Shown: positions 3,462 to 51,007 of the stretch, one piece after another
Layout of the letters: each line of letters begins with the position of its first letter
Position numbering within the stretch: position 1 is the first letter of the stretch
Origin: an uncultured Actinomycetota bacterium
GTDB lineage: Bacteria > Actinomycetota > Actinomycetes > DATJPE01
DNA length: 64,000 nucleotides
Reading direction: 5' to 3'
Assembly (NCBI GenBank): GCA_963819985.1
Contig: CAWFYH010000004.1
Span: forward strand, 466,713 to 530,712
The notes under the pieces: generated by a model
What the model was told of the DNA's origin: nothing
Databases searched by the model: none
Seen by the model: only the letters and a program-made list of their open reading frames with translations
Translations under genes and position numbers: made by a program

Positions 3462-3534
3462 GCCCTCGTAGCTCAGGGGATAGAGCAACGGTTTCCTAAA
3501 CCGTGTGTCGGCAGTTCGATTCTGCCCGGGGGCA
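3462..3534 (+). tRNA. tRNA-Arg (anticodon CCT)
   Basis: 73-nt cloverleaf read by hand. Acceptor GCCCTCG/CGGGGGC (one G-U), D-arm GCTC-AGGGGATA-GAGC, anticodon arm ACGGT-TTCCTAA-ACCGT (CCT at 3495-3497), T-arm GGCAG-TTCGATT-CTGCC, discriminator A. CCA is not encoded. Confidence 0.85.
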
Positions 3535-3651
3535 CAAGCACCCGACTGGCAACGTCGGACCCAGTTCGGGGACCATCCTCCGGGCACGCCAACGCCGGGG
3601 ACCGTGCCTGGGCGCAGGCCCTGAGATCCACGGTCTGTTGGCGGTAGATTC

Positions 3652-4069: not shown

Positions 4070-7000
4070 GTGACCTATCGAGCCACCGACTCCCCGTCCG
4101 TCGGCGGCGCCGACGGCCCGCTTACCGACGCCCTGTTGAAGACGGGGCGTTTCTTCACCAGATGGGACGAGACCGACGACGGCCGTGCCGTCTTTCGCGA
4201 AGGTGGCCGCAAGGGCGACGTCTTCTATCGAGACCGATGGAGTCACGACAAGGTCGTCCGCTCGACGCACGGTGTCAACTGCACCGGCTCCTGTTCATGG
4301 AAGGTCTACGTCAAGGACGGGATCATCACCTGGGAGACCCAGCAGACCGACTACCCCACGACGGGCCCACACAGCCCGGAGTACGAGCCACGCGGCTGCC
4401 CGCGCGGCGCAGCATTCAGCTGGTACACCTACTCCCCCACCAGGGTGCGCTACCCCTACGTGCGCGGCGTCCTTGTCGAGATGTACCGCGAAGCGAAGTC
4501 GCGGCTGAAGGACCCGGTCCTCGCCTGGGCCGACGTCGTCGGAGACCCCGAGAGGCGCCGCCGCTATCAGCAGGCCCGCGGCAAGGGCGGCCTCGTACGG
4601 ACGACCTGGGATGAGTCAGTAGAGATCGCTGCCGCTGCTCACGTGCACACCATCAAGACGTACGGCCCCGACCGTTGCGCAGGATTCTCACCGATCCCGG
4701 CGATGTCGATCGTCTCGCACTGCATCGGAACGCGGTTCATCCAGCTCATTGGCGGGGTCATGACCTCGTTCTACGACTGGTATGCCGACCTGCCCGTGGC
4801 CAGCCCCCAGGTCTTCGGCGACCAGACCGACGTCCCTGAGTCGGGAGACTGGTGGGACGCGACCTATCTGATGATGTGGGGCTCCAACGTCCCCGTCACC
4901 AGAACCCCGGATGCCCACTGGATGACCGAGGTCCGCTATCGCGGCACCAAGGTCGTCAGCGTCAGCCCCGACTATGCCGACAACACCAAGTTCGCCGACG
5001 AGTGGCTACCCGCGCAGGCCGGCACGGATGCGGCACTGGCCATGGCGATGGGGCACGTCATCCTGCGGGAGTACCTCGTCGACCGGCAGGTACCGTTCTT
5101 TCACGACTACGTGCGCCAATACACCGACCTGCCGTTCCTCGTCACGTTGACTGAACGGGACGGCGCCTACGTGCCCGGCAAGAACCTCACAGCCGCCGAC
5201 CTGGGCGAAACCGGCGAGGGGGCGCAGTTCAAGACCGTGCTGCTCGACGCGGCCAACGGCGATCCGGTGGTGCCCAACGGATCTCTGGGGTTCCGCTACA
5301 CCGACTCCGGTGTCGGAAAGTGGAATCTCGACCTCGAGGACGTCACCCCAGCGCTGTCGGTGCGTGACGCGTCCGGTGACAGCAGCGTCGCTGAGGTGCT
5401 GCTGCCGTCGTTCGAGTCGGCTGACGGCACGGGCGCGGTCATGCACCGAGGAGTGCCCACCCGAACTGTCAATGGTCACCTCGTCACGACCGTCTATGAC
5501 CTGATGCTTGCCCAGTACGGCGTCGCGCGCGACGGCCTGCCCGGAGCTTGGCCGACCGGATACGACGACGCCGGCACCCCCTACACACCCGCGTGGCAGG
5601 AGGCCATCACCTCCGTTCCCGCGCAGGCCGCCACGCGGATCGCCCGGGAGTTCGCGACCAACGCCGAGCAGTCCGGCGGTCGATCGATGATCATCATGGG
5701 TGCAGGAATCTGCCAGTGGTTCCACGGTGACGCCACCTACCGCGCCGTACTGGCCATGTTGATGCTGACCGGCTGCATGGGTCGCAACGGTGGCGGCTGG
5801 GCGCACTACGTCGGGCAGGAGAAGTGCCGCCCGATCACCGGATGGATCTCCCTCGCCAACGCGATGGACTGGAGCCGGCCACCTCGCACCAACCCCGGGA
5901 CCTCGTTCTGGTACATGCACACCGACCAGTGGCGCTTCGACGGCTACCAGGCCGATGCCCTGGCCTCCCCCCTGGCCGAAGGGCACCTCACCGGCCTGCA
6001 CACCGCAGACACGATCGCGAAGTCCGCCCGGCTCGGCTGGATGCCCTTCTACCCTCAGTTCGACCGCAACCCCCTGGACCTGGCCGATGATGCCTTGGCG
6101 GCAAACCCGGACGCCCCCATCGATCACGTGGTCAAGGAGCTGACCGAGGGCACCCTGAAGTTCGCTGTTGACGACGTCGACGCGCCGGAGAACTGGCCAC
6201 GCACGCTGGTGCTGTGGCGAGCCAACCTGCTGGGCTCGTCTGCAAAGGGCAACGAGTACTTCTTGAAGTACTTGCTCGGGACCCACTCCAACGTCACCGC
6301 AGCCGAGCCCGGGCCGGAGGTGCGGCCGAGCGAGGTGACTTGGCGCGACGACATCCCTGAGGGCAAGCTCGACCTGCTGGTGAGCGCGGACTTCCGGATG
6401 ACGTCCACGACCCTGCTGTCCGACATCGTCTTCCCCGCCGCCACCTGGTATGAGAAGCACGATCTGTCCAGCACGGACATGCACCCCTTCGTGCACGCCT
6501 TCTCACCTGCGATCGATCCACCCTGGGAAGCCAAGAGCGACTTCGACACCTTCCATGCAATCGCTCGCAAGATCTCCCAGATGGCGAAGACGCATCTGGG
6601 AACCCGCAAGGACCTGGTCAGCGTCGCGCTGCTGCACGACACCCCCGGGGAGACGGCGCAGCCCGGCGGGCACGCGCTCGACTGGGCCAAGGGCGAGGTT
6701 GCGCCGATCCCAGGCAAGACGATGCCCGCCCTGACCATCGTCGAACGTGACTACACCGCGATCGCCGACAAGCTGGGGGCCGTCGGCCCGCTCGCGGAGA
6801 CGCTCGGTTTCCCGGTCAAGGGCGTGACCTACGACGTCAGCCACCAGGTTGAGCAACTCAGCAAGCTCGGTGGCGTCATGCTCGGTGGGGCGGCCGACGG
6901 ACGACCCGCCATCGACACGGACACCAAGATGGCAGAAGCCATCTTGACCTTCAGCGGCACCACCAACGGCGAGCTCGCTGCCCAGGGGTTCCGCACGTTG

Positions 7001-7780
7001 GAGAAGCGCGTCGGCAAGCCGCTGTCCGACCTCGCAGAGGGCTCGGAGGAGAAGCGGATCACTTTCGCCGACACTCAAGCGCGCCCGGTCGCGGTCATCA
7101 CCTCCCCCGAGTGGTCCGGATCGGAGACCGGCGGTCGCCGCTATGCACCGTTCACGGTCAACGTCGAGCGGCTCAAGCCCTGGCACACCCTCACCGGGCG
7201 AATGCACTTCTTCCTCGACCACGACTGGATGCGCGATCTCGGTGAGGCCCTGCCGACCTATCGGCCACCGCTCGACCTGCACCGACTTCTGGGTGAACCC
7301 GAGCTTGGTGAGGACGGTTCCAAGCAGATCACCGTCAGATATCTGACCCCGCACTCGAAGTGGTCCATCCACTCCGAGTACCAAGACAACTTGTTCATGC
7401 TCTCGTTATCCCGCGGCGGACCGACCGTATGGATGAGCCCTCAGGACGCAGCGGTCATCGAAGCGAAGGACAACGACTGGGTGGAATGCGTGAACGCCAA
7501 CGGCATCATGGTGCTAAGGGCGATCGTGACCCACAAGATGCCGCCCGGGATCGTCTTCGTCTATCACGCGCAGGAACGCACCATCGACGTGCCGAAGACC
7601 GAGCGCACCGGACGCCGCGGTGGCATTCACAACAGCCTGACCCGGCTCCTGATCAAGCCCACCCACCTCATCGGTGGATACGCGCAGCTGTCCTACACGT
7701 TCAACTACCTCGGCCCGACAGGAAACCAGCGGGACATGATCACGACGATCCGCCGGCGCTCCCAGGATGTGACGTACTGA
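4070..7780 (+). CDS. narG: respiratory nitrate reductase alpha subunit
   Basis: 1236 aa. GTG start preceded by GGGAGG. N-terminal GVNCTGSCSWKVYVKDG FeS0 motif and molybdopterin domains. Followed by narH/narI. Confidence 0.93.
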   Translation: MTYRATDSPSVGGADGPLTDALLKTGRFFTRWDETDDGRAVFREGGRKGDVFYRDRWSHDKVVRSTHGVNCTGSCSWKVYVKDGIITWETQQTDYPTTGPHSPEYEPRGCPRGAAFSWYTYSPTRVRYPYVRGVLVEMYREAKSRLKDPVLAWADVVGDPERRRRYQQARGKGGLVRTTWDESVEIAAAAHVHTIKTYGPDRCAGFSPIPAMSIVSHCIGTRFIQLIGGVMTSFYDWYADLPVASPQVFGDQTDVPESGDWWDATYLMMWGSNVPVTRTPDAHWMTEVRYRGTKVVSVSPDYADNTKFADEWLPAQAGTDAALAMAMGHVILREYLVDRQVPFFHDYVRQYTDLPFLVTLTERDGAYVPGKNLTAADLGETGEGAQFKTVLLDAANGDPVVPNGSLGFRYTDSGVGKWNLDLEDVTPALSVRDASGDSSVAEVLLPSFESADGTGAVMHRGVPTRTVNGHLVTTVYDLMLAQYGVARDGLPGAWPTGYDDAGTPYTPAWQEAITSVPAQAATRIAREFATNAEQSGGRSMIIMGAGICQWFHGDATYRAVLAMLMLTGCMGRNGGGWAHYVGQEKCRPITGWISLANAMDWSRPPRTNPGTSFWYMHTDQWRFDGYQADALASPLAEGHLTGLHTADTIAKSARLGWMPFYPQFDRNPLDLADDALAANPDAPIDHVVKELTEGTLKFAVDDVDAPENWPRTLVLWRANLLGSSAKGNEYFLKYLLGTHSNVTAAEPGPEVRPSEVTWRDDIPEGKLDLLVSADFRMTSTTLLSDIVFPAATWYEKHDLSSTDMHPFVHAFSPAIDPPWEAKSDFDTFHAIARKISQMAKTHLGTRKDLVSVALLHDTPGETAQPGGHALDWAKGEVAPIPGKTMPALTIVERDYTAIADKLGAVGPLAETLGFPVKGVTYDVSHQVEQLSKLGGVMLGGAADGRPAIDTDTKMAEAILTFSGTTNGELAAQGFRTLEKRVGKPLSDLAEGSEEKRITFADTQARPVAVITSPEWSGSETGGRRYAPFTVNVERLKPWHTLTGRMHFFLDHDWMRDLGEALPTYRPPLDLHRLLGEPELGEDGSKQITVRYLTPHSKWSIHSEYQDNLFMLSLSRGGPTVWMSPQDAAVIEAKDNDWVECVNANGIMVLRAIVTHKMPPGIVFVYHAQERTIDVPKTERTGRRGGIHNSLTRLLIKPTHLIGGYAQLSYTFNYLGPTGNQRDMITTIRRRSQDVTY

Positions 7781-15186: not shown

Positions 15187-15506
15187 CCCGAGCACAACAG
15201 ATCCTTCTCCGACGCCTGCGAGGTGAGCTGTCGGGTTCGGGCCGGAGCTGGCCCGGGCGATCGACCCGCACACGGCGGAACGAGCACCTTCACCCCAAGG
15301 TTGTCGCGAGCGGCCCGAGGCCGTCGTCCCAACCGTGGAACCTGTGGGTCCCCCACTCCTGCCCAACGGACTGTCACGCGAACCTCGACGTGGGGCAGGA
15401 CTCGGCGATCACGTCAAAGCGCCCCCGCCGGTGCGGGAGCGGAACGAGGCTACGTGAGGAGCCCGGCGTTTGTCACGTTTGTGTCACAGCGCGTCCCCCG
15501 AACGGG

Positions 15507-16212: not shown

Positions 16213-17676
16213 ATGGATGAGGACTTCGGGGACCTGGCGCCGCCTATCCTCACACGCGATGGCGACGACCGGAACCGAGTTGCGCCGGTCGTGTCGGTGC
16301 GCGACGGTCGATCGGTGAGCCCGGCCATCCACTGGTTTCGTCGAGATCTCCGTCTCGCTGACAACCCCGCCCTGCTGTCTGCTGCAGCGGCAGGCGCCGG
16401 CGACGTGCTGGCCCTGTTCGTCCTGGACCCGCTGCTCTGGCGTCGGAGTGGTCCCGTCCGCCAGGCCTACCTGGTCGATTCCCTGCAGGCGCTCAGGGCG
16501 TCGCTCGACGGACGGCTGCTCGTGCGGCACGGCGATCCCACCCGCGTGGTGCCGGAGGTGGCAGACCAGTTCGCCGCCACGTCCGTCCACGCGGCGGCAG
16601 ACTTTGGTCCGTACGGCAGCCGCCGCGACGCCACCGTTAGCGAGGCCCTGGGGGATGCCTTCGTACGTGACGGATCGCCCTATGCCGTCGCACCCGGGAG
16701 GGTCCACAAGCCGGACGGGACGCCGTACCGCGTCTATACCCCCTTCTATCGGGCGTGGCGCGCTCACGGCTGGCGCGCTCCCGCGCCCTCCGCGGTTGAC
16801 GCGAACGTGACCTTCGCAACGCCGGAAGGCGACGACGGGGTCCCCGAGGCACCTAGCGAAAACCGTGCACAGCTACCGAAGGCCGGGGAGCAGGCCGCCT
16901 ACGAGCGCTGGATGAACTTCTGCGAGCGCGGGCTGGACGACTATGCGCAGTCACGTGATCGACCCGACCGGGCCGGAACGTCCGGCCTCAGTGCCGCACT
17001 GAAGTGGGGCGAGATCCATCCGCGCACGTTGCTGACCCACCTCGGGGACTCCCGCTCCCACGACACGTTCCGAAAGGAACTGGCGTGGCGCGAGTTCTAT
17101 GCCGATGTCCTGCACCACAACCCGGGCTCCGCCCACTGGAACCTGCGCTCAGACCTCTCGCACATCGAGGTCGACGAAGGTCCACAGGCCAACGAACGAT
17201 TCGAGGCCTGGGCCTCTGGCCGGACCGGCTATCCCTTCGTCGACGCGGGTATGCGACAGCTGCTGGCCGAGGGCTGGATGCACAACCGCGTGCGCATGGT
17301 GGTGGCGTCCTTCCTGGTGAAGGACCTGCATCTTGCGTGGCCTCGGGGCGCCCGGCATTTCATGCGGTGGCTCCGCGACGGAGACCTGGCATCCAACCAG
17401 CACGGCTGGCAGTGGGTAGCCGGGACCGGCACGGATGCGGCTCCGTACTTCCGCGTGTTCAATCCGGTCAGCCAGGGTCGGCGCTTCGATCCCGACGGCG
17501 ACTATGTCCGGAGGTACGTCCCCGAGCTCGTCGAACTGGCCGGGCCGGCCGTGCACGAACCCTGGAAAACACCGGGCGGCGCACCCCACGGATACCCCGA
17601 ACGGATCGTTGATCACGGCCTCGAGCGACAGGAGGCGCTCGCCCGCTACGACCGCGCCCGGCGGGCTTCTGGATAG
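16213..17676 (+). CDS. phr: deoxyribodipyrimidine photolyase (cryptochrome/photolyase family)
   Basis: The C-terminal part of ORF 15571 carries the FAD-binding domain (WREFY...GWMHNRVRM...WQWVAGTGTDAAPYFRVFNP). The 5-prime 640 nt of that ORF are antisense to ideR and not coding. ATG 16213 is the first start after ideR; alternative GTG starts at 16291/16315 sit just before the IHWFRRDLRL motif. Confidence 0.8.
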   Translation: MDEDFGDLAPPILTRDGDDRNRVAPVVSVRDGRSVSPAIHWFRRDLRLADNPALLSAAAAGAGDVLALFVLDPLLWRRSGPVRQAYLVDSLQALRASLDGRLLVRHGDPTRVVPEVADQFAATSVHAAADFGPYGSRRDATVSEALGDAFVRDGSPYAVAPGRVHKPDGTPYRVYTPFYRAWRAHGWRAPAPSAVDANVTFATPEGDDGVPEAPSENRAQLPKAGEQAAYERWMNFCERGLDDYAQSRDRPDRAGTSGLSAALKWGEIHPRTLLTHLGDSRSHDTFRKELAWREFYADVLHHNPGSAHWNLRSDLSHIEVDEGPQANERFEAWASGRTGYPFVDAGMRQLLAEGWMHNRVRMVVASFLVKDLHLAWPRGARHFMRWLRDGDLASNQHGWQWVAGTGTDAAPYFRVFNPVSQGRRFDPDGDYVRRYVPELVELAGPAVHEPWKTPGGAPHGYPERIVDHGLERQEALARYDRARRASG

Positions 17677-17713
17677 CGGTTCGGAGCGCCGCCGGGTAAG
17701 GCAGACTCAAGGT

Positions 17714-18505
17714 GTGCTCGTGATCAGCGTGGTCAGCCTCAAGGGTGGGGTGGGCAAGACCAGCGTGGTCCTCGGCCTGGCGGGTGCAGCCTGGGAGCGC
17801 GGCCTACGGACGCTCGTCGTGGACCTTGACCCCCAGGGCAACGCCTCCACCGTGCTGGACCCTCCAGAGGTCCGTTTCTCCGCCTCGGATGTGCTGTCTG
17901 ACCCGGGCTCCGGTTTGCTCACCCACGCCATCTCCCGCAGCGGTTGGGGGGAGTCCGTCGATGTGGTTGCCGCCGACAGCTTGCTCGAGCGGCACAACCT
18001 GTTCACGGGGCGCGCCTCCGGGCTTCAGCTTCGCGTTGCGCTCAACGGCCTCAGCGGTTACGACCTGGTGCTGATCGATGCACCGCCCTCGCTCGGTGGC
18101 CTGACTCGCAACGCGCTCGCCGCCTCTCACTACGCGCTCGTCGTGGCCGAGCCTTCGTTGTTCGCCTTGCAGGGCACTCAGTCGGCGCTCGAGGCGATCG
18201 ACATCGTCCAGGCCGACAATCTGCGTCTGCAGACGGCGGGGATCGTCGTCAACAAGCTGCGCGCGCAGTCGACCGAACACCGCTTCCGAATCGAAGAGCT
18301 CCGAGCCGCCTACGGCCTACTCGTGCTGGAACCATTGATTCCGGACCGAACGGCCATCCAGCAGGCTGAAGGGGCGTGTGTACCCGTCCAGGCCTGGCGG
18401 TCCCCCGGCGCACGCGAGGTCGGCGACGCGTTCGACGATCTGCTGGACAAATTGCTCGCACTGCGCGTCGCTGACGGCCCCCTTGCTTCGAGGAAGCACG
18501 CATGA
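17714..18505 (+). CDS. orphan ParA/MinD-family P-loop ATPase
   Basis: GTG 17714 after the photolyase stop. Deviant Walker A KGGVGKTS, then DLDPQGN, a Walker B-like region and an A-prime motif. Stop overlaps the next ORF (ATGA). Confidence 0.8.
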   Translation: MLVISVVSLKGGVGKTSVVLGLAGAAWERGLRTLVVDLDPQGNASTVLDPPEVRFSASDVLSDPGSGLLTHAISRSGWGESVDVVAADSLLERHNLFTGRASGLQLRVALNGLSGYDLVLIDAPPSLGGLTRNALAASHYALVVAEPSLFALQGTQSALEAIDIVQADNLRLQTAGIVVNKLRAQSTEHRFRIEELRAAYGLLVLEPLIPDRTAIQQAEGACVPVQAWRSPGAREVGDAFDDLLDKLLALRVADGPLASRKHA

Positions 18506-18978
18506 ACGCTGTCAACCCGCGCCCGGTCACCAACAGCCGAAACCCCGGACCCCGACCCGCGCTTCGCCGCGAAGGGGGTGAGCCGGATGGCGCCCTGGCG
18601 GTGGCCCGACCCGGGAGCGGAGCAGCCGGCGAGGAGGCCAGCCCGCAAGAACGCCGGATCAGGATTGCTCCGACGCCGGGTCAACGACGGCCCCATGACT
18701 CCGACCCATCCGCTGGCAGCCGCCCGGCGGAGGGCGAGGGGAAGGTCAAGGGAACGAAGAAGAACGCGAAGAAGGAGAAGCGCAGCAAGAAGGACAAGAA
18801 GAAGGGCAAGAAGAAGGAGAACCTCAGTGGTCTGCCATTGAGTGACGTGGTTCCCCCGGAGCTGACCGTCGCCTTGCCGAAGCCCCTACGCCGGGCACTG
18901 GCCGAGGCAGCGACCCAGCGTGACGTAGCGCCTGAGCTCCTGGTGGCTCAAGTTCTCTCGGAGTGGCTCGACCACTGA
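18502..18978 (+). CDS. lysine-rich disordered protein with a C-terminal ribbon-helix-helix (CopG/ParG-like) DNA-binding domain
   Basis: 158 aa. Central KVKGTKKNAKKEKRSKKDKKKGKKK tract. C-terminal LTVALPKPLRRALAEAATQRDVAPELLVAQVLSEWL fits a beta-alpha-alpha RHH fold. Translationally coupled to the ParA-like gene. Confidence 0.55.
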   Translation: MNAVNPRPVTNSRNPGPRPALRREGGEPDGALAVARPGSGAAGEEASPQERRIRIAPTPGQRRPHDSDPSAGSRPAEGEGKVKGTKKNAKKEKRSKKDKKKGKKKENLSGLPLSDVVPPELTVALPKPLRRALAEAATQRDVAPELLVAQVLSEWLDH

Positions 18979-18997
18979 CGCGTGGCGGGCACCCCCC

Positions 18998-19062
18998 ACA
19001 AGTCGAACTGTTCGATTTGCGGGTGCCCTGACCCACGAAAGTCAAACTGTTCGACTTACCGG
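18998..19062. repeat. two ~25-bp direct repeats, each containing a 13-15-bp palindrome (TCGAACTGTTCGA; GTCAAACTGTTCGAC)
   Basis: aagtcgaactgttcgatttgcggg at 18999-19023 and aagtcaaactgttcgacttaccgg at 19038-19062 (palindrome centres ~39 bp apart). They start ~20 bp after the RHH gene stop and ~120 bp upstream of the M15 peptidase gene. Confidence 0.6.
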
Positions 19063-19181
19063 ATGGGTACGGGGCGACTTATGGGGCGGGTACGGCTCCG
19101 CCCCGGGCGGCGCGACACGCGGAAGCAGCGCGATCCCAGCCGAGGCTTGACTCGCGGCTGCGGATCACCGAAGCATGAAGG

Positions 19182-19946
19182 GTGAGCAGTATCCCCGGCT
19201 CGAGGGCCGACTTGAGTCGCGTGGGCCGCGTCGCCATAGTCGCTGCTGCGTCGCTGGTGCTGGTGCTGGTCGGTCCCCAAGGTGCTTCTAGCGCGGCCTC
19301 GGGAGACGGCGAACGGTTCCCGGGAACGGCGCTGACGGTCATCGACCCCATGCCACCGAAGGCGGGGGTGAGCGTTTCCGGACCGCTGACGAGAGCAGAC
19401 GTGCCGTACTCCTATCGGCCCGGTTGTCCCGTGTCGCCGTCCCAGTTGCGGCGCGTCTCGGTGCTGCACGTGGCCTACGACGGCCGGATCGAACGCGGCT
19501 CGGTGATCGTGCGCAAGGACGCCGTGAACGATGTCAGTCATGTGTTCTCAGCGGCTTTCGAGGCGGAATTCCCGATCTTTCGAATGACCCCGGTCGACAC
19601 TTTCTACCGCAAGGGGAAGGTGTCGCCGTCGCGCTCCGACATCCGTGCGATGGAGGCGAACAACACCTCAGCCTTCAACTGCCGACCAGTGACCGGCAAC
19701 CCATACCGCTTGTCGACACACTCGGTCGGGATCGCGATCGACATCAACCCGCGGCAGAATCCGTACGTGACCAGCAGCCGGGTCTATCCAGACGGATCCC
19801 GCACCTTCCTCGACCGAGGCGACAAGCGCAAGGGGATGATCGTCAGAGGCGGAGTCATTGCCCAGGCGATGTCGTCGCGCGGCTGGCCATGGGGGGCTCG
19901 CTGGTCGCACCCCGACTATCAACATTTCTCTGCCAACGGCGGATGA
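19182..19946 (+). CDS. secreted M15-family (VanY / D,D-carboxypeptidase-like) zinc peptidase
   Basis: GTG start with a GAAGGG RBS, followed by a signal peptide. The SHSVGIAIDINP and WGARWSHPDYQHF motifs are typical of M15 peptidases. Confidence 0.7.
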   Translation: MSSIPGSRADLSRVGRVAIVAAASLVLVLVGPQGASSAASGDGERFPGTALTVIDPMPPKAGVSVSGPLTRADVPYSYRPGCPVSPSQLRRVSVLHVAYDGRIERGSVIVRKDAVNDVSHVFSAAFEAEFPIFRMTPVDTFYRKGKVSPSRSDIRAMEANNTSAFNCRPVTGNPYRLSTHSVGIAIDINPRQNPYVTSSRVYPDGSRTFLDRGDKRKGMIVRGGVIAQAMSSRGWPWGARWSHPDYQHFSANGG

Positions 19947-49714: not shown

Positions 49715-51007
49715 ATGCCTTTCGATCCCAAGCCCACCGACCGAGCCCCGCAGAGGCGACCGCAGCTGGCCCGCCGCGACGTCCTCCGGCTCGGAGGCTT
49801 GGCCGCCGCTGGCCTGACGGCCGCACCCCTGCTATCCGCCTGCTCGCGCGACTCGAACAACACCGCCACCACTGGCGGCACCGGCGCCTCAGGCGGCACC
49901 GGCGACGGGCCTTACCCGCTGGCGCGCCCGGATGCGCCGGTCACCCTGCCGATCTTCGACGACACCCCGGCGATTGCCAGCGGGCAACAGATCGAGAAGG
50001 TCTCCGCGCTGCGCGTGCTGAACTACGCCGACTACATCGCCCCCAAGGTGAAGAAGCAGTTCGGGCAGAAGTACGGCGTGGAAATTCAGGTCACTCCCTA
50101 CAACAACTATGACGAGATGCTCACCAAGCTCACCGCGCCCGGCGCCGCGTTCGATGTCGTCTTTCCAGGGCCGAGCTATCTGAGCCGCATGGTCTACGGC
50201 AAGCTCCTGCAGCCTCTCCAGCATTCCTACGTACCCAACCTGAAGAACGTCTGGCCGGAGTACGAGGACCCGTGGTACGACCAGGGCTCGCAGTACACGG
50301 TGCCCTACACCGTCTACACCAGCGGTATCGGATATCGCACCGACCGCGTCACCGACCCCTCCGAGGGTTACAAGATGCTGTGGAACAGCGCTTACTCCGG
50401 CAAGATGGGCGTTCTCGACGATGCCGGCGAAGCGCTCGCTATGGCGATGCTGGCCTGGGACATCACGCGTGACATCAACACGGCCGATCCCGCGCTGGTC
50501 CAAGCCGCCCAGGACAAGCTGGACGAGCTGATCCCGCTCGGGGTGAAGGTCGACATCACGCAGTACGAAACGATCGCAAGCGGCAAGTTCACGGTTCACC
50601 AAGCCTGGTCGGGCGACATGATCGCAGCCAGGTGGTATCTGCCGAAGGGTGTGAGCACCGACGTCCTTGGCTACTGGGTCCCCGAGGCCAACACCGACCG
50701 CGTGATCGGGAACGACAACATGGCGATTCCCGCGTCCTCCCCATCACCTGTCCTGGCACACACCTTCCTCAACGAGCTGCTCGACAACGATGTCTCCGAG
50801 CTGAACTTCAGCTGGAACGGCTACCAACCCCCCCTCACGAAACTGACCGCCGACTATCTCATCAAGCAGGACTACATCAAGTCGAACATGATGCCCGCGG
50901 TCGTCGTCCCCGCAGATTTCGCCTCAGAGCTCCAGTTCTTCGAGCGACCGCCTGCGGTAGAGAACATGTGGCTGGCCGCCTTCCAGGCGTTCCAGAGTGG
51001 CGGCTGA
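49715..51007 (+). CDS. Tat-signal lipoprotein; polyamine-type (PotD/PotF-like) ABC transporter substrate-binding protein
   Basis: ATG behind CAGGAGGA. RRDVLRLGGLAAAGLTAAPLLSACS Tat/lipobox. PBP2 PotD/PotF-like body. Confidence 0.8.
   Translation: MPFDPKPTDRAPQRRPQLARRDVLRLGGLAAAGLTAAPLLSACSRDSNNTATTGGTGASGGTGDGPYPLARPDAPVTLPIFDDTPAIASGQQIEKVSALRVLNYADYIAPKVKKQFGQKYGVEIQVTPYNNYDEMLTKLTAPGAAFDVVFPGPSYLSRMVYGKLLQPLQHSYVPNLKNVWPEYEDPWYDQGSQYTVPYTVYTSGIGYRTDRVTDPSEGYKMLWNSAYSGKMGVLDDAGEALAMAMLAWDITRDINTADPALVQAAQDKLDELIPLGVKVDITQYETIASGKFTVHQAWSGDMIAARWYLPKGVSTDVLGYWVPEANTDRVIGNDNMAIPASSPSPVLAHTFLNELLDNDVSELNFSWNGYQPPLTKLTADYLIKQDYIKSNMMPAVVVPADFASELQFFERPPAVENMWLAAFQAFQSGG

Follow-up and report, generated by a model that had tools for sequence, protein, structure and literature searches.

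In this study, we examined a two-gene locus in a 64,000-nucleotide stretch of high-GC actinobacterial DNA (hereafter the window) from an uncultured Actinomycetota bacterium (contig CAWFYH010000004.1, positions 466,713 to 530,712). The locus comprises the gene of a ParA/Soj-type ATPase of 263 amino acids (17714-18505, forward strand) and that of a partner or adaptor protein of 158 amino acids (18502-18978, forward strand), whose ATG overlaps the stop codon of the ATPase gene (ATGA) in a translationally coupled arrangement. We consider it fairly probable that this locus is related to the type Ib partition cassettes of actinobacterial plasmids but fixed in the chromosome and inherited vertically, and that it forms a two-gene ParA/adaptor positioning module; the pair probably either descended from such cassettes or is ancestral to them. 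It departs from a plasmid partition locus on two points: it is not plasmid-borne, and it has no evident centromere array. A previous sequence-only reading of the same stretch had described a minimal type Ib-like module, a proposal borne out by the architecture, by the predicted fold of the partner and by the homology of both proteins to a plasmid cassette of Rhodococcus. The same reading had called the ATPase an orphan, which is misleading, as the protein encoded behind it is the equivalent of a ParB partner.

The first protein belongs to the ParA/MinD (deviant Walker A) superfamily, as had been read from the letters alone. Residues 8-17 are SLKGGVGKTS, which places the deviant Walker A motif KGGVGKTS, including its signature lysine (17741-17764, forward strand; from residue 10), at the extreme N-terminus. 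Against Pfam the protein matched AAA_31 (2e-27) and CbiA (1e-19), and the nearest NCBIfam model was 'ParA_partition', with a score well under the model cut-off. It could be aligned end to end (residues 2-234, E about 2.5e-22) with Soj of T. thermophilus (1wcv), an alignment in which DLDPQGNAS and LVLIDAPPSL are retained in the switch and Walker B regions. The ParA-like structure 4pfs of M. smegmatis was considered as an orthologue and set aside, being only as close as Soj (1e-21). A helix-turn-helix (HTH) domain is absent from the N-terminus, and inspection of the C-terminus showed a variable basic tail after a conserved DGPL and no amphipathic membrane-targeting helix; the matrix of the ATPase would presumably be the nucleoid. 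An alternative GTG at 17720 would give a form of 261 amino acids, as present in databases.

The partner has three parts. Near its N-terminus lies the peptide NPGPRPALRR (residues 14-23; 18541-18570, forward strand), with the family consensus NPxPRPAL[RK][RK], in which P15, P17, R18, P19, A20 and L21 are near-invariant across a 46-member family alignment. By analogy, this is a candidate ATPase-contacting and ATPase-stimulating peptide, since such contact is a general rule for the partners of ParA/MinD proteins (PMC10241942; PMC3074162). A disordered linker follows, with a Lys-rich section at residues 81-106 (KVKGTKKNAKKEKRSKKDKKKGKKKE; 18742-18819, forward strand; predicted local distance difference test (pLDDT) about 50). 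Six of its lysines are invariant in the seven closest homologues, and it would probably provide non-specific affinity for DNA. The third part is a C-terminal ribbon-helix-helix (RHH) domain (residues 119-158, ELTVALPKPLRRALAEAATQRDVAPELLVAQVLSEWLDH; 18856-18975, forward strand), called from AlphaFold2, Foldseek and profile comparisons. With the family alignment as input, AlphaFold2 left residues 1-118 disordered and modelled residues 121-158 at pLDDT 90-96 as an extended segment followed by helices at 127-140 and 144-157, so that the fold foreseen for the C-terminus was recovered in the prediction.

Comparison of this model with the PDB by Foldseek ranked RHH proteins at the top, namely StnY, the PutA RHH, ORF56, CopG, Arc, AmrZ, VapB and CdbA (TM 0.6-0.72 by target, rmsd 1.6-1.9 Å over about 39 columns), with non-RHH structures only in the weak tail. 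Profile evidence points the same way at low significance: over the whole domain, the family profile matched a CopG-family RHH (9kkd, E=0.03) and ParG (1p94, E=0.54), and the sub-threshold Pfam matches of family members were FitA-like_RHH, ParG, RHH_10, RHH_5, Arc and CopG_antitoxin. The Pfam model ParG (PF09274) was matched by 3 of 46 relatives, at E 0.0015 or weaker; the window partner itself had no Pfam match at E<=0.01 and no NCBIfam match. Several points weigh against the assignment and against a DNA-reading role. The Foldseek E-values all exceed 0.1, which is not significant at this domain size; the call concerns a domain of 40 residues with individually weak sequence E-values; and the strand residues expected to face the DNA (E/T/A) seem no obvious choice for base-specific reading and differ between the RHH of the window and that of the plasmid proteins described below. 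We nevertheless regard the RHH as established at the level of the fold, from which dimerisation and DNA binding would be presumed.

Searching with the window partner as a single sequence returned only seven homologues, and a profile was required to reveal the family. In the seven, the N-terminus has the form NPGPRPALRR..V.RPG, the middle is rich in Lys, and the C-terminus, L.V.LPKPLRRALA.AA.....PE.LVA.VLSEWLDH, hardly varies. A family profile made from these homologues together with the partners from loci of more distant ATPase orthologues found 97 proteins in a word-indexed search and, in an exhaustive hidden Markov model search, 336 clusters (50% identity) at E<=1e-3, of which 146 at E<=1e-10. 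The clusters are mostly 90-240 amino acids long and are matched from the N-terminal motif through the C-terminus; those sampled bore only names of metagenome-assembled genomes (MAGs) of Actinomycetes, Frankiales and Nanopelagicales. One member (P0133, 234 amino acids) has the C-terminus of the ATPase fused to the partner, probably an assembly error. Among the word-indexed matches only one precomputed Pfam domain was present (RepB-RCR_reg). In the 46-sequence alignment the C-terminal pattern is L.V.(L/V)PK..R......A.........L..W and the linker varies, being Lys-rich in the clade of the window and otherwise basic or Pro/Thr/Lys-rich elsewhere, the freshwater lineages having a Pro/Thr/Lys-rich linker with an extra FxGSTSDHLRVP motif. 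The partner thus represents a protein family of 336 clusters and clear three-part architecture for which neither Pfam nor NCBIfam has a model, and in the literature searched we found no account of this ATPase/RHH pair.

Relatives of the ATPase number in the thousands. The closest, from uncultured Actinomycetota, are 76-92% identical, and those at about 60% identity come from Vallicoccus soli, Jiangellales and freshwater Actinomycetota. Between close MAGs the ATPase is 81-96% identical as against 35-53% for the partner, within which only the N-terminal peptide and the RHH are conserved. We compared 11 distinct loci: the window, L001 (=L003), L002, L004, L005, L006/L007, L008, L009, L010, L038 and L039; a scan of a genome collection gave three MAG loci only. 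In all 11, a partner gene of the three-part architecture stands directly after the ATPase gene, usually overlapping it. In the long-read MAG contigs the partner gene is broken by frameshifts in L005 and L008, and in L002 the photolyase, ATPase and citrate synthase genes are split; these frameshifts are probably assembly errors.

The setting of the pair is stable as well. The window carries, in order, an NlpC/P60 hydrolase gene (reverse strand), a gene for a DtxR/IdeR-family regulator (reverse strand), a DNA photolyase gene ending at 17676, the ATPase and partner genes, an M15_4 peptidase gene (19182-19946), an open reading frame of 246 amino acids without a family match, pdxH (reverse strand) and the citrate synthase gene. 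The order NlpC/P60-DtxR-photolyase-ParA-partner...pdxH-citrate synthase-serC is kept even in a freshwater lineage whose ATPase is 59% identical. In the related loci the gene order is conserved on contigs that are 0.5-2 Mb long, and the context is therefore chromosomal and the inheritance vertical, in agreement with the absence of a plasmid context noted by the sequence-only reading. That reading placed the module between photolyase and cell-wall peptidase genes, which describes the window correctly; across the loci the more stable neighbour is the DtxR-family gene, which is always near the pair, with the pair often after a photolyase gene. In the Jiangellaceae locus L038 the pair is directly divergent from DtxR and has no photolyase gene. 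To judge from gene order, the stable unit is the ATPase with its partner, usually near DtxR. Two different DNA-repair genes stand beside the pair across lineages, photolyase upstream or uracil-DNA glycosylase (L039, 6203-6829, after the pair), which may be coincidence; in L038 a HAD hydrolase gene (6156-7004) follows the pair.

The pair also seems to bring its own promoter. A promoter-like -10 element, CAGACT (17702-17707, forward strand), precedes the GTG start (17714-17716) by 6 nt. The sequence GGCAGACTC, 7 nt upstream of the GTG and fixed relative to the GTGCT start of the ATPase gene, is shared by the window with L009, L010, L001 and L004, and also with the distant L038, where the gene diverges from DtxR. 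Such conservation just before the GTG suggests an independent leaderless transcript of the ATPase-partner pair from this putative promoter.

The link to plasmid partition comes from a search of 72,556 plasmids, in which the best matches of the ATPase were ParA proteins of actinobacterial plasmids (39-45% identity) and the partner had no match. The ParA proteins of the Rhodococcus plasmids pRWAY04 and pFAJ2600 are 42% identical to the window ATPase over the full length (E=8e-51). In both cassettes, annotated as 'ParA family protein' and 'hypothetical protein', a gene of 89-91 codons comes next after parA and overlaps it, and its product ends in ...AFATRLPPDMQRMVKTACAQRGIRIQDAVYEALWHWLN; this end aligned with the RHH of the window family with an hhalign probability of 53% (E=1.4e-4). 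At the parA promoter the Rhodococcus cassettes have dyads of the form TCTAAC..GTTAGA, and pRWAY04 also has one 19 nt past the partner stop codon; they probably serve the plasmid RHH proteins as operators or centromeres. The dyad sites lie at 1467-1494 and 2564-2585 in pRWAY04 (L040) and at 981-1018 and 1169-1194 in pFAJ2600 (L042), their TCTAAC/GTTAGA arms are separated by spacers of 2, 8 or 10 nt, and one overlaps the -10 of a TTGACA promoter before parA. To our knowledge, the Rhodococcus plasmid partners have had no experimental test. The best plasmid match of the ATPase, at 45% identity, was found on a 465-kb 'plasmid' of Microbacterium sp. (NZ_CP072877.1, locus L041, 3001-3705), where the PLSDB gene table annotates no gene; it stands beside two MerR-family genes, an FHA-domain gene and lpdA, and the region is probably of chromosomal type and its ParA a different paralogue.

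From what is known of these protein families, the following mechanism would apply. With ATP, the ATPase would form a sandwich dimer and coat the nucleoid; the partner would dimerise through its C-terminal RHH and bind DNA with the β-ribbon, aided by the basic disordered linker; its N-terminal peptide NPxPRPAL[RK][RK] would touch the ATPase dimer and trigger ATP hydrolysis; and the resulting ParA gradient would move or space the partner-bound cargo. Because the partner resembles a DNA binder, the most likely cargo would be DNA, namely some site or region of the chromosome, and not an organelle made of protein. A partner that couples the ATPase to a non-DNA cargo, in the manner of McdB, PomXY or ParP, with the RHH as no more than a dimerisation or cargo-binding domain, seems to us distinctly improbable. 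ParA/MinD partners are extremely diverse and many serve protein cargos (PMC10241942), the long disordered linker recalls McdB-type adaptors, and no DNA site is common to the whole partner family; yet there is no candidate cargo nearby, where DtxR, photolyase, pdxH and citrate synthase are the conserved neighbours, DNA is what the RHH fold suggests, as do linkers that are Lys-rich or basic, and the nearest relatives of the same architecture are plasmid DNA-partition cassettes.

A second alternative keeps DNA binding and gives up positioning: the pair would be a regulatory or nucleoid-associated system, with an RHH repressor or nucleoid-associated protein (compare omega of pSM19035, and CdbA) whose DNA binding is modulated by the ATPase. 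Repression is the typical function of RHH proteins, and in its basic linker the partner is reminiscent of nucleoid-associated proteins and their tails. The Foldseek matches of the partner include the RHH nucleoid protein CdbA, and most lineages have no visible centromere-like array near the pair. We find this reading rather unlikely all the same, since a partner that is strictly paired and translationally coupled with a highly conserved ParA, and that has a conserved N-terminal peptide, is a hallmark of ATPase/partner systems, and no operator-like dyad is present at the putative promoter of the ATPase gene.

Two palindromic repeats stand behind the partner gene. The sequence-only reading described them as 25-bp repeats starting 20 bp downstream, which comes close: palindromic direct repeats they are, although the units measure 31 nt and the first begins 15 nt past the partner stop codon, with its dyad core 22 nt past it. 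Box 1 (CCCCCACAAGTCGAACTGTTCGATTTGCGGG) occupies 18993-19023 with a dyad core at 19000-19018, and box 2 (CCCACGAAAGTCAAACTGTTCGACTTACCGG) 19032-19062 with a core at 19039-19057; the units are 77% identical, stand 39 nt apart from start to start and each carry the dyad AAGTC(G/A)AAC-T-GTTCGA(T/C)TT. Between them runs the block CCCTGACCC (19026-19034), which is the same in the window, L009 and L010. Both boxes belong to a lineage-specific segment of about 140 nt (18979-19121) bounded by an imperfect outer inverted repeat (18979-18995/19105-19121). At up to one mismatch, the box 15-mer occurs at these two sites only in the 64 kb, and the looser pattern TCNAAC-N0-10-GTTNGA, expected 0.22 times per 64 kb, was observed twice, in adjacent positions; among all loci compared it is limited to the boxes and the Rhodococcus plasmid sites. 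An additional dispersed half-site at 50879, the only one in the window, is indistinguishable from chance. A direct repeat at 19052-19072/19075-19095 (CGACTTACCGGATGGGTACGG/CGACTTATGGGGCGGGTACGG, 81% identical) takes up the right end of box 2, CGACTTA, once more; L009 has this repeat too, it is not recognisable in L010, and it may be a third, degenerate half-box. Nine nucleotides of the box (GTCGAACTG) also occur at 17530-17538 within the photolyase gene, at its 3' end and some 180 nt upstream of where the ATPase gene starts, a match judged chance-like (roughly 0.5 expected per 64 kb in GC-rich coding sequence).

For the boxes, the contig of family member P0005 was added to the 11 loci (n=12). 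Three of the twelve have them, namely the window, L009 (partner 87% identical) and L010 (partner 56%, ATPase 92%), among which neither their place nor the 39-nt spacing differs. The window and L010 are far apart, with four-fold sites of parA near saturation (46% identical, against 34% by chance), yet the 67-nt core of boxes and CCCTGACCC is identical at 55 of 67 positions (82%, P about 1e-9): the element is under purifying selection in that sub-lineage. What is conserved is the primary sequence AAGTC(A/G)AACTGTTC and not the hairpin: in L010 box 1 the dyad and the hairpin are lost while 14 nt of box sequence are retained, and an asymmetric TCAAAC..GTTCGA form appears in three of the four boxes. 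Retention of sequence without hairpin favours a protein-binding DNA site over an RNA structure.

The alternative at the RNA level is that the boxes are tandem hairpins (a terminator or insulator without a U-tract) or the remnant of a small mobile palindromic element. The box segment begins directly after the partner stop codon, on either strand 18979-19181 folds better than its shuffles do (z -3.9 and -4.4), the fold having an outer stem and, in box 1, a strong hairpin, and the pattern of presence and absence looks insertion-like, L001 having only a short hairpin at the same place. Set against this are the fold of the L010 segment, which is like that of shuffles (z -0.44), and the asymmetry just described. 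An intrinsic terminator was rejected, as there is no terminator call in 18979-19125, no U-tract and no conservation of the structure in L010. No further copy of the element was found in the 64 kb or in the loci of relatives; the 147-nt element had no blastn match in plasmids or phages, the box region matched no Rfam family, and a metagenome scan for paired boxes gave 27 matches, all of them low-GC tandem repeats without ParA or partner homologues. Overall, we judge an RNA-level or mobile-element origin quite improbable.

It remains a tentative proposal, held with somewhat less than even confidence, that the boxes are high-affinity sites of the RHH partner. They lie directly behind the partner gene, the dyad has a pair of TCGA sub-sites at a distance of 9 bp that might accommodate an RHH dimer of dimers, and the Rhodococcus dyads share with them a rare TCNAAC/GTTNGA half-site class as well as the position. 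The comparative data speak against the boxes as part of the module. Nine of the twelve loci (L001, L002, L004, L005, L006, L008, L038, L039 and the P0005 contig) keep the partner gene, eight of them with the ATPase in view, and have no boxes; L001 (partner 53%, ATPase 91%) and the P0005 contig do so with a nearly identical RHH, which argues that a conserved RHH target would lie elsewhere. In L001 only 77 nt separate the partner gene from the M15 promoter block, as against 203 nt in the window, and in the P0005 contig a 40-nt gap to M15 leaves no room for boxes. Further, there is no box-like sequence within about 5 kb in eight relatives, no box-like operator at the putative parA promoter in the window, and no iterated repeat or convincing dyad near the pair in L001, L006, L038 and L039; upstream of the pair, neither the window nor these relatives have repeats. 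A strand residue of the RHH that appeared to track the boxes (Thr in carriers, Val in L001 and L004) was dismissed, as the P0005 contig and L002 have Thr and no boxes. The sequence-only reading had held that loss of the repeats in relatives keeping the gene pair would count against it, and for the repeats this is largely what was found, the gene pair itself being conserved in every locus compared. Missing from nine of twelve loci, the boxes are no integral or defining part of the module; they would be a later, lineage-specific addition, and the module would work without them at this position.

Alternatively, the boxes would be sites of another transcription factor, unrelated to the pair, that modulates the promoter of the M15 peptidase and membrane-protein genes in one sub-lineage. 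The boxes sit between the partner stop codon and the M15 promoter-like block, about 85-190 nt upstream of it, they are conserved at the level of primary sequence as a protein site would be, and two direct copies 39 nt apart fit a dimeric or tetrameric regulator; that relatives with nearly the same RHH are box-free agrees with it too. We hold this explanation to be doubtful, though not negligible: the promoter block is kept without boxes in L001, L004 and the P0005 contig, activator and repressor sites do not usually lie so far upstream, the boxes have no known candidate regulator and the rest of the 64 kb holds no further copy, and the half-site class and position shared with the dyads of homologous plasmid cassettes favour the RHH. 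Two known regulators were considered and rejected. The actinobacterial LexA SOS box has the spacing TCGAAC-N4-GTTCGA, and the boxes have TCGAAC-N1-GTTCGA; a scan with N4 matches weakly elsewhere in the window and nowhere at the locus. For IdeR, the best match to its box in the intergenic regions near the pair reached 11 of 19 positions.

The M15 block itself (19147-19184, forward strand) is a neighbour outside the module, consisting of TTGACT (19147-19152), 18 nt, AAGCAT (19171-19176), 5 nt and the GTG at 19182. In the form GCTTGACTC, 18 nt, AAGCAT, 5 nt, GTG it is kept in the window, L010, L001 and L004, with or without boxes, which suggests a putative promoter and a leaderless mRNA. Among the relatives, only L001, L004, L010 and the P0005 contig have an M15 peptidase gene 3' of the pair. 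The earlier suggestion that the pair regulates the downstream M15 and membrane-protein operon is therefore not upheld, since M15 follows only in some lineages and its promoter block occurs with or without the repeats; judged by gene order, the pair appears not to be functionally tied to the peptidase.

Returning to the proposed positioning module, its strongest form would be a second, plasmid-derived and chromosomally fixed DNA-positioning system, widespread in mostly uncultured Actinomycetes including freshwater Nanopelagicales, in which an RHH adaptor with a histone-tail-like linker tethers the ParA gradient to a specific chromosomal region and the TCRAAC-T-GTTCGA boxes are a newly acquired centromere-like site in the sub-lineage of the window. 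Taken as a whole we think this unlikely. If true, the birth or relocation of a chromosomal centromere for a type Ib system would have been caught, and in any case the boxes offer a rare comparative handle, with relatives that have or lack a constrained dyad pair beside one and the same gene pair. More generally, many bacteria have 'orphan' ParA-like ATPases without a known partner or cargo, and here the partner can be named; for specialists this will be expected, and it is useful for the orphan-ParA problem. The tie to type Ib cassettes leads to testable hypotheses, with the N-terminal peptide as ATPase activator and the RHH and basic linker as DNA tether. That the ATPase is highly conserved in a stable chromosomal neighbourhood of several lineages (its relatives bear the names Jiangellales, Frankiales and Nanopelagicales) speaks for a housekeeping role in the organisation of the nucleoid or of a cargo, a role unstudied because model actinobacteria are not among the carriers found.

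Two other features were seen elsewhere in the window. A c-di-AMP (ydaO-type) riboswitch (15198-15417, reverse strand; 54.1 bits against a gathering threshold of 38) lies in the leader of the NlpC/P60 hydrolase gene, and the true start of that gene is therefore downstream of the first start codon of the long open reading frame. The sole tRNA gene is a tRNA-Arg(CCT) (3462-3535, forward strand).

Compared with chromosomal ParA(Soj)/ParB/parS systems, the ATPase has its closest solved structure in Soj of T. thermophilus, whereas the partner has no ParB/Srx or HTH domain and no origin-proximal parAB context can be recognised around the locus. In line with the sequence-only reading, the 64 kb contain no ParB-type gene, and no parS (TGTTTCACGTGAAACA) was found there at up to three mismatches. 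Additional small ParA-like ATPases are likewise encoded on actinobacterial chromosomes, namely Rv3213c ('ParP') of M. tuberculosis and PldP/Rv1708/SCO1772. Rv3213c is a substrate of the PafE-proteasome for which no conspicuous partner was reported (bioRxiv 10.1101/249060), and PldP sits in a xerD-scpAB context (PMC4255298). As described, these published proteins are without a reported RHH partner. McdA/McdB and other pairs of a ParA/MinD ATPase and its adaptor follow the same two-gene logic, the adaptor being mostly disordered and its conserved N-terminus charged, and ParA/MinD partners contact their ATPases through a charged, disordered N-terminus (PMC10241942); in contrast to McdA/McdB, the window pair has no microcompartment or other cargo genes nearby, and its adaptor ends in a predicted DNA-binding fold.

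The closest likeness is to the type Ib systems, ParF/ParG of TP228, delta/omega of pSM19035 and ParA/ParB of pCXC100 from the actinobacterium Leifsonia: a small ParA without HTH and, immediately downstream, the gene of a partner in which a flexible tail at the N-terminus is joined to a dimeric C-terminal RHH that ordinary sequence searches miss (PMC3074162), as is predicted for the window partner. The differences are of setting and of detail. The window pair is chromosomal and vertically inherited, with synteny conserved across orders, and lacks an iterated centromere array upstream of the operon; the linker of its partner is much longer (about 100 residues) and basic, the NPxPRPAL[RK][RK] peptide is specific to the family, and the partner falls short of the Pfam ParG model. 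The Rhodococcus cassettes, homologous in both proteins, are plasmid-borne and have dyads also at the parA promoter, where the window has none; their N-terminal peptide is KKPSAFGG... and their linker is shorter.

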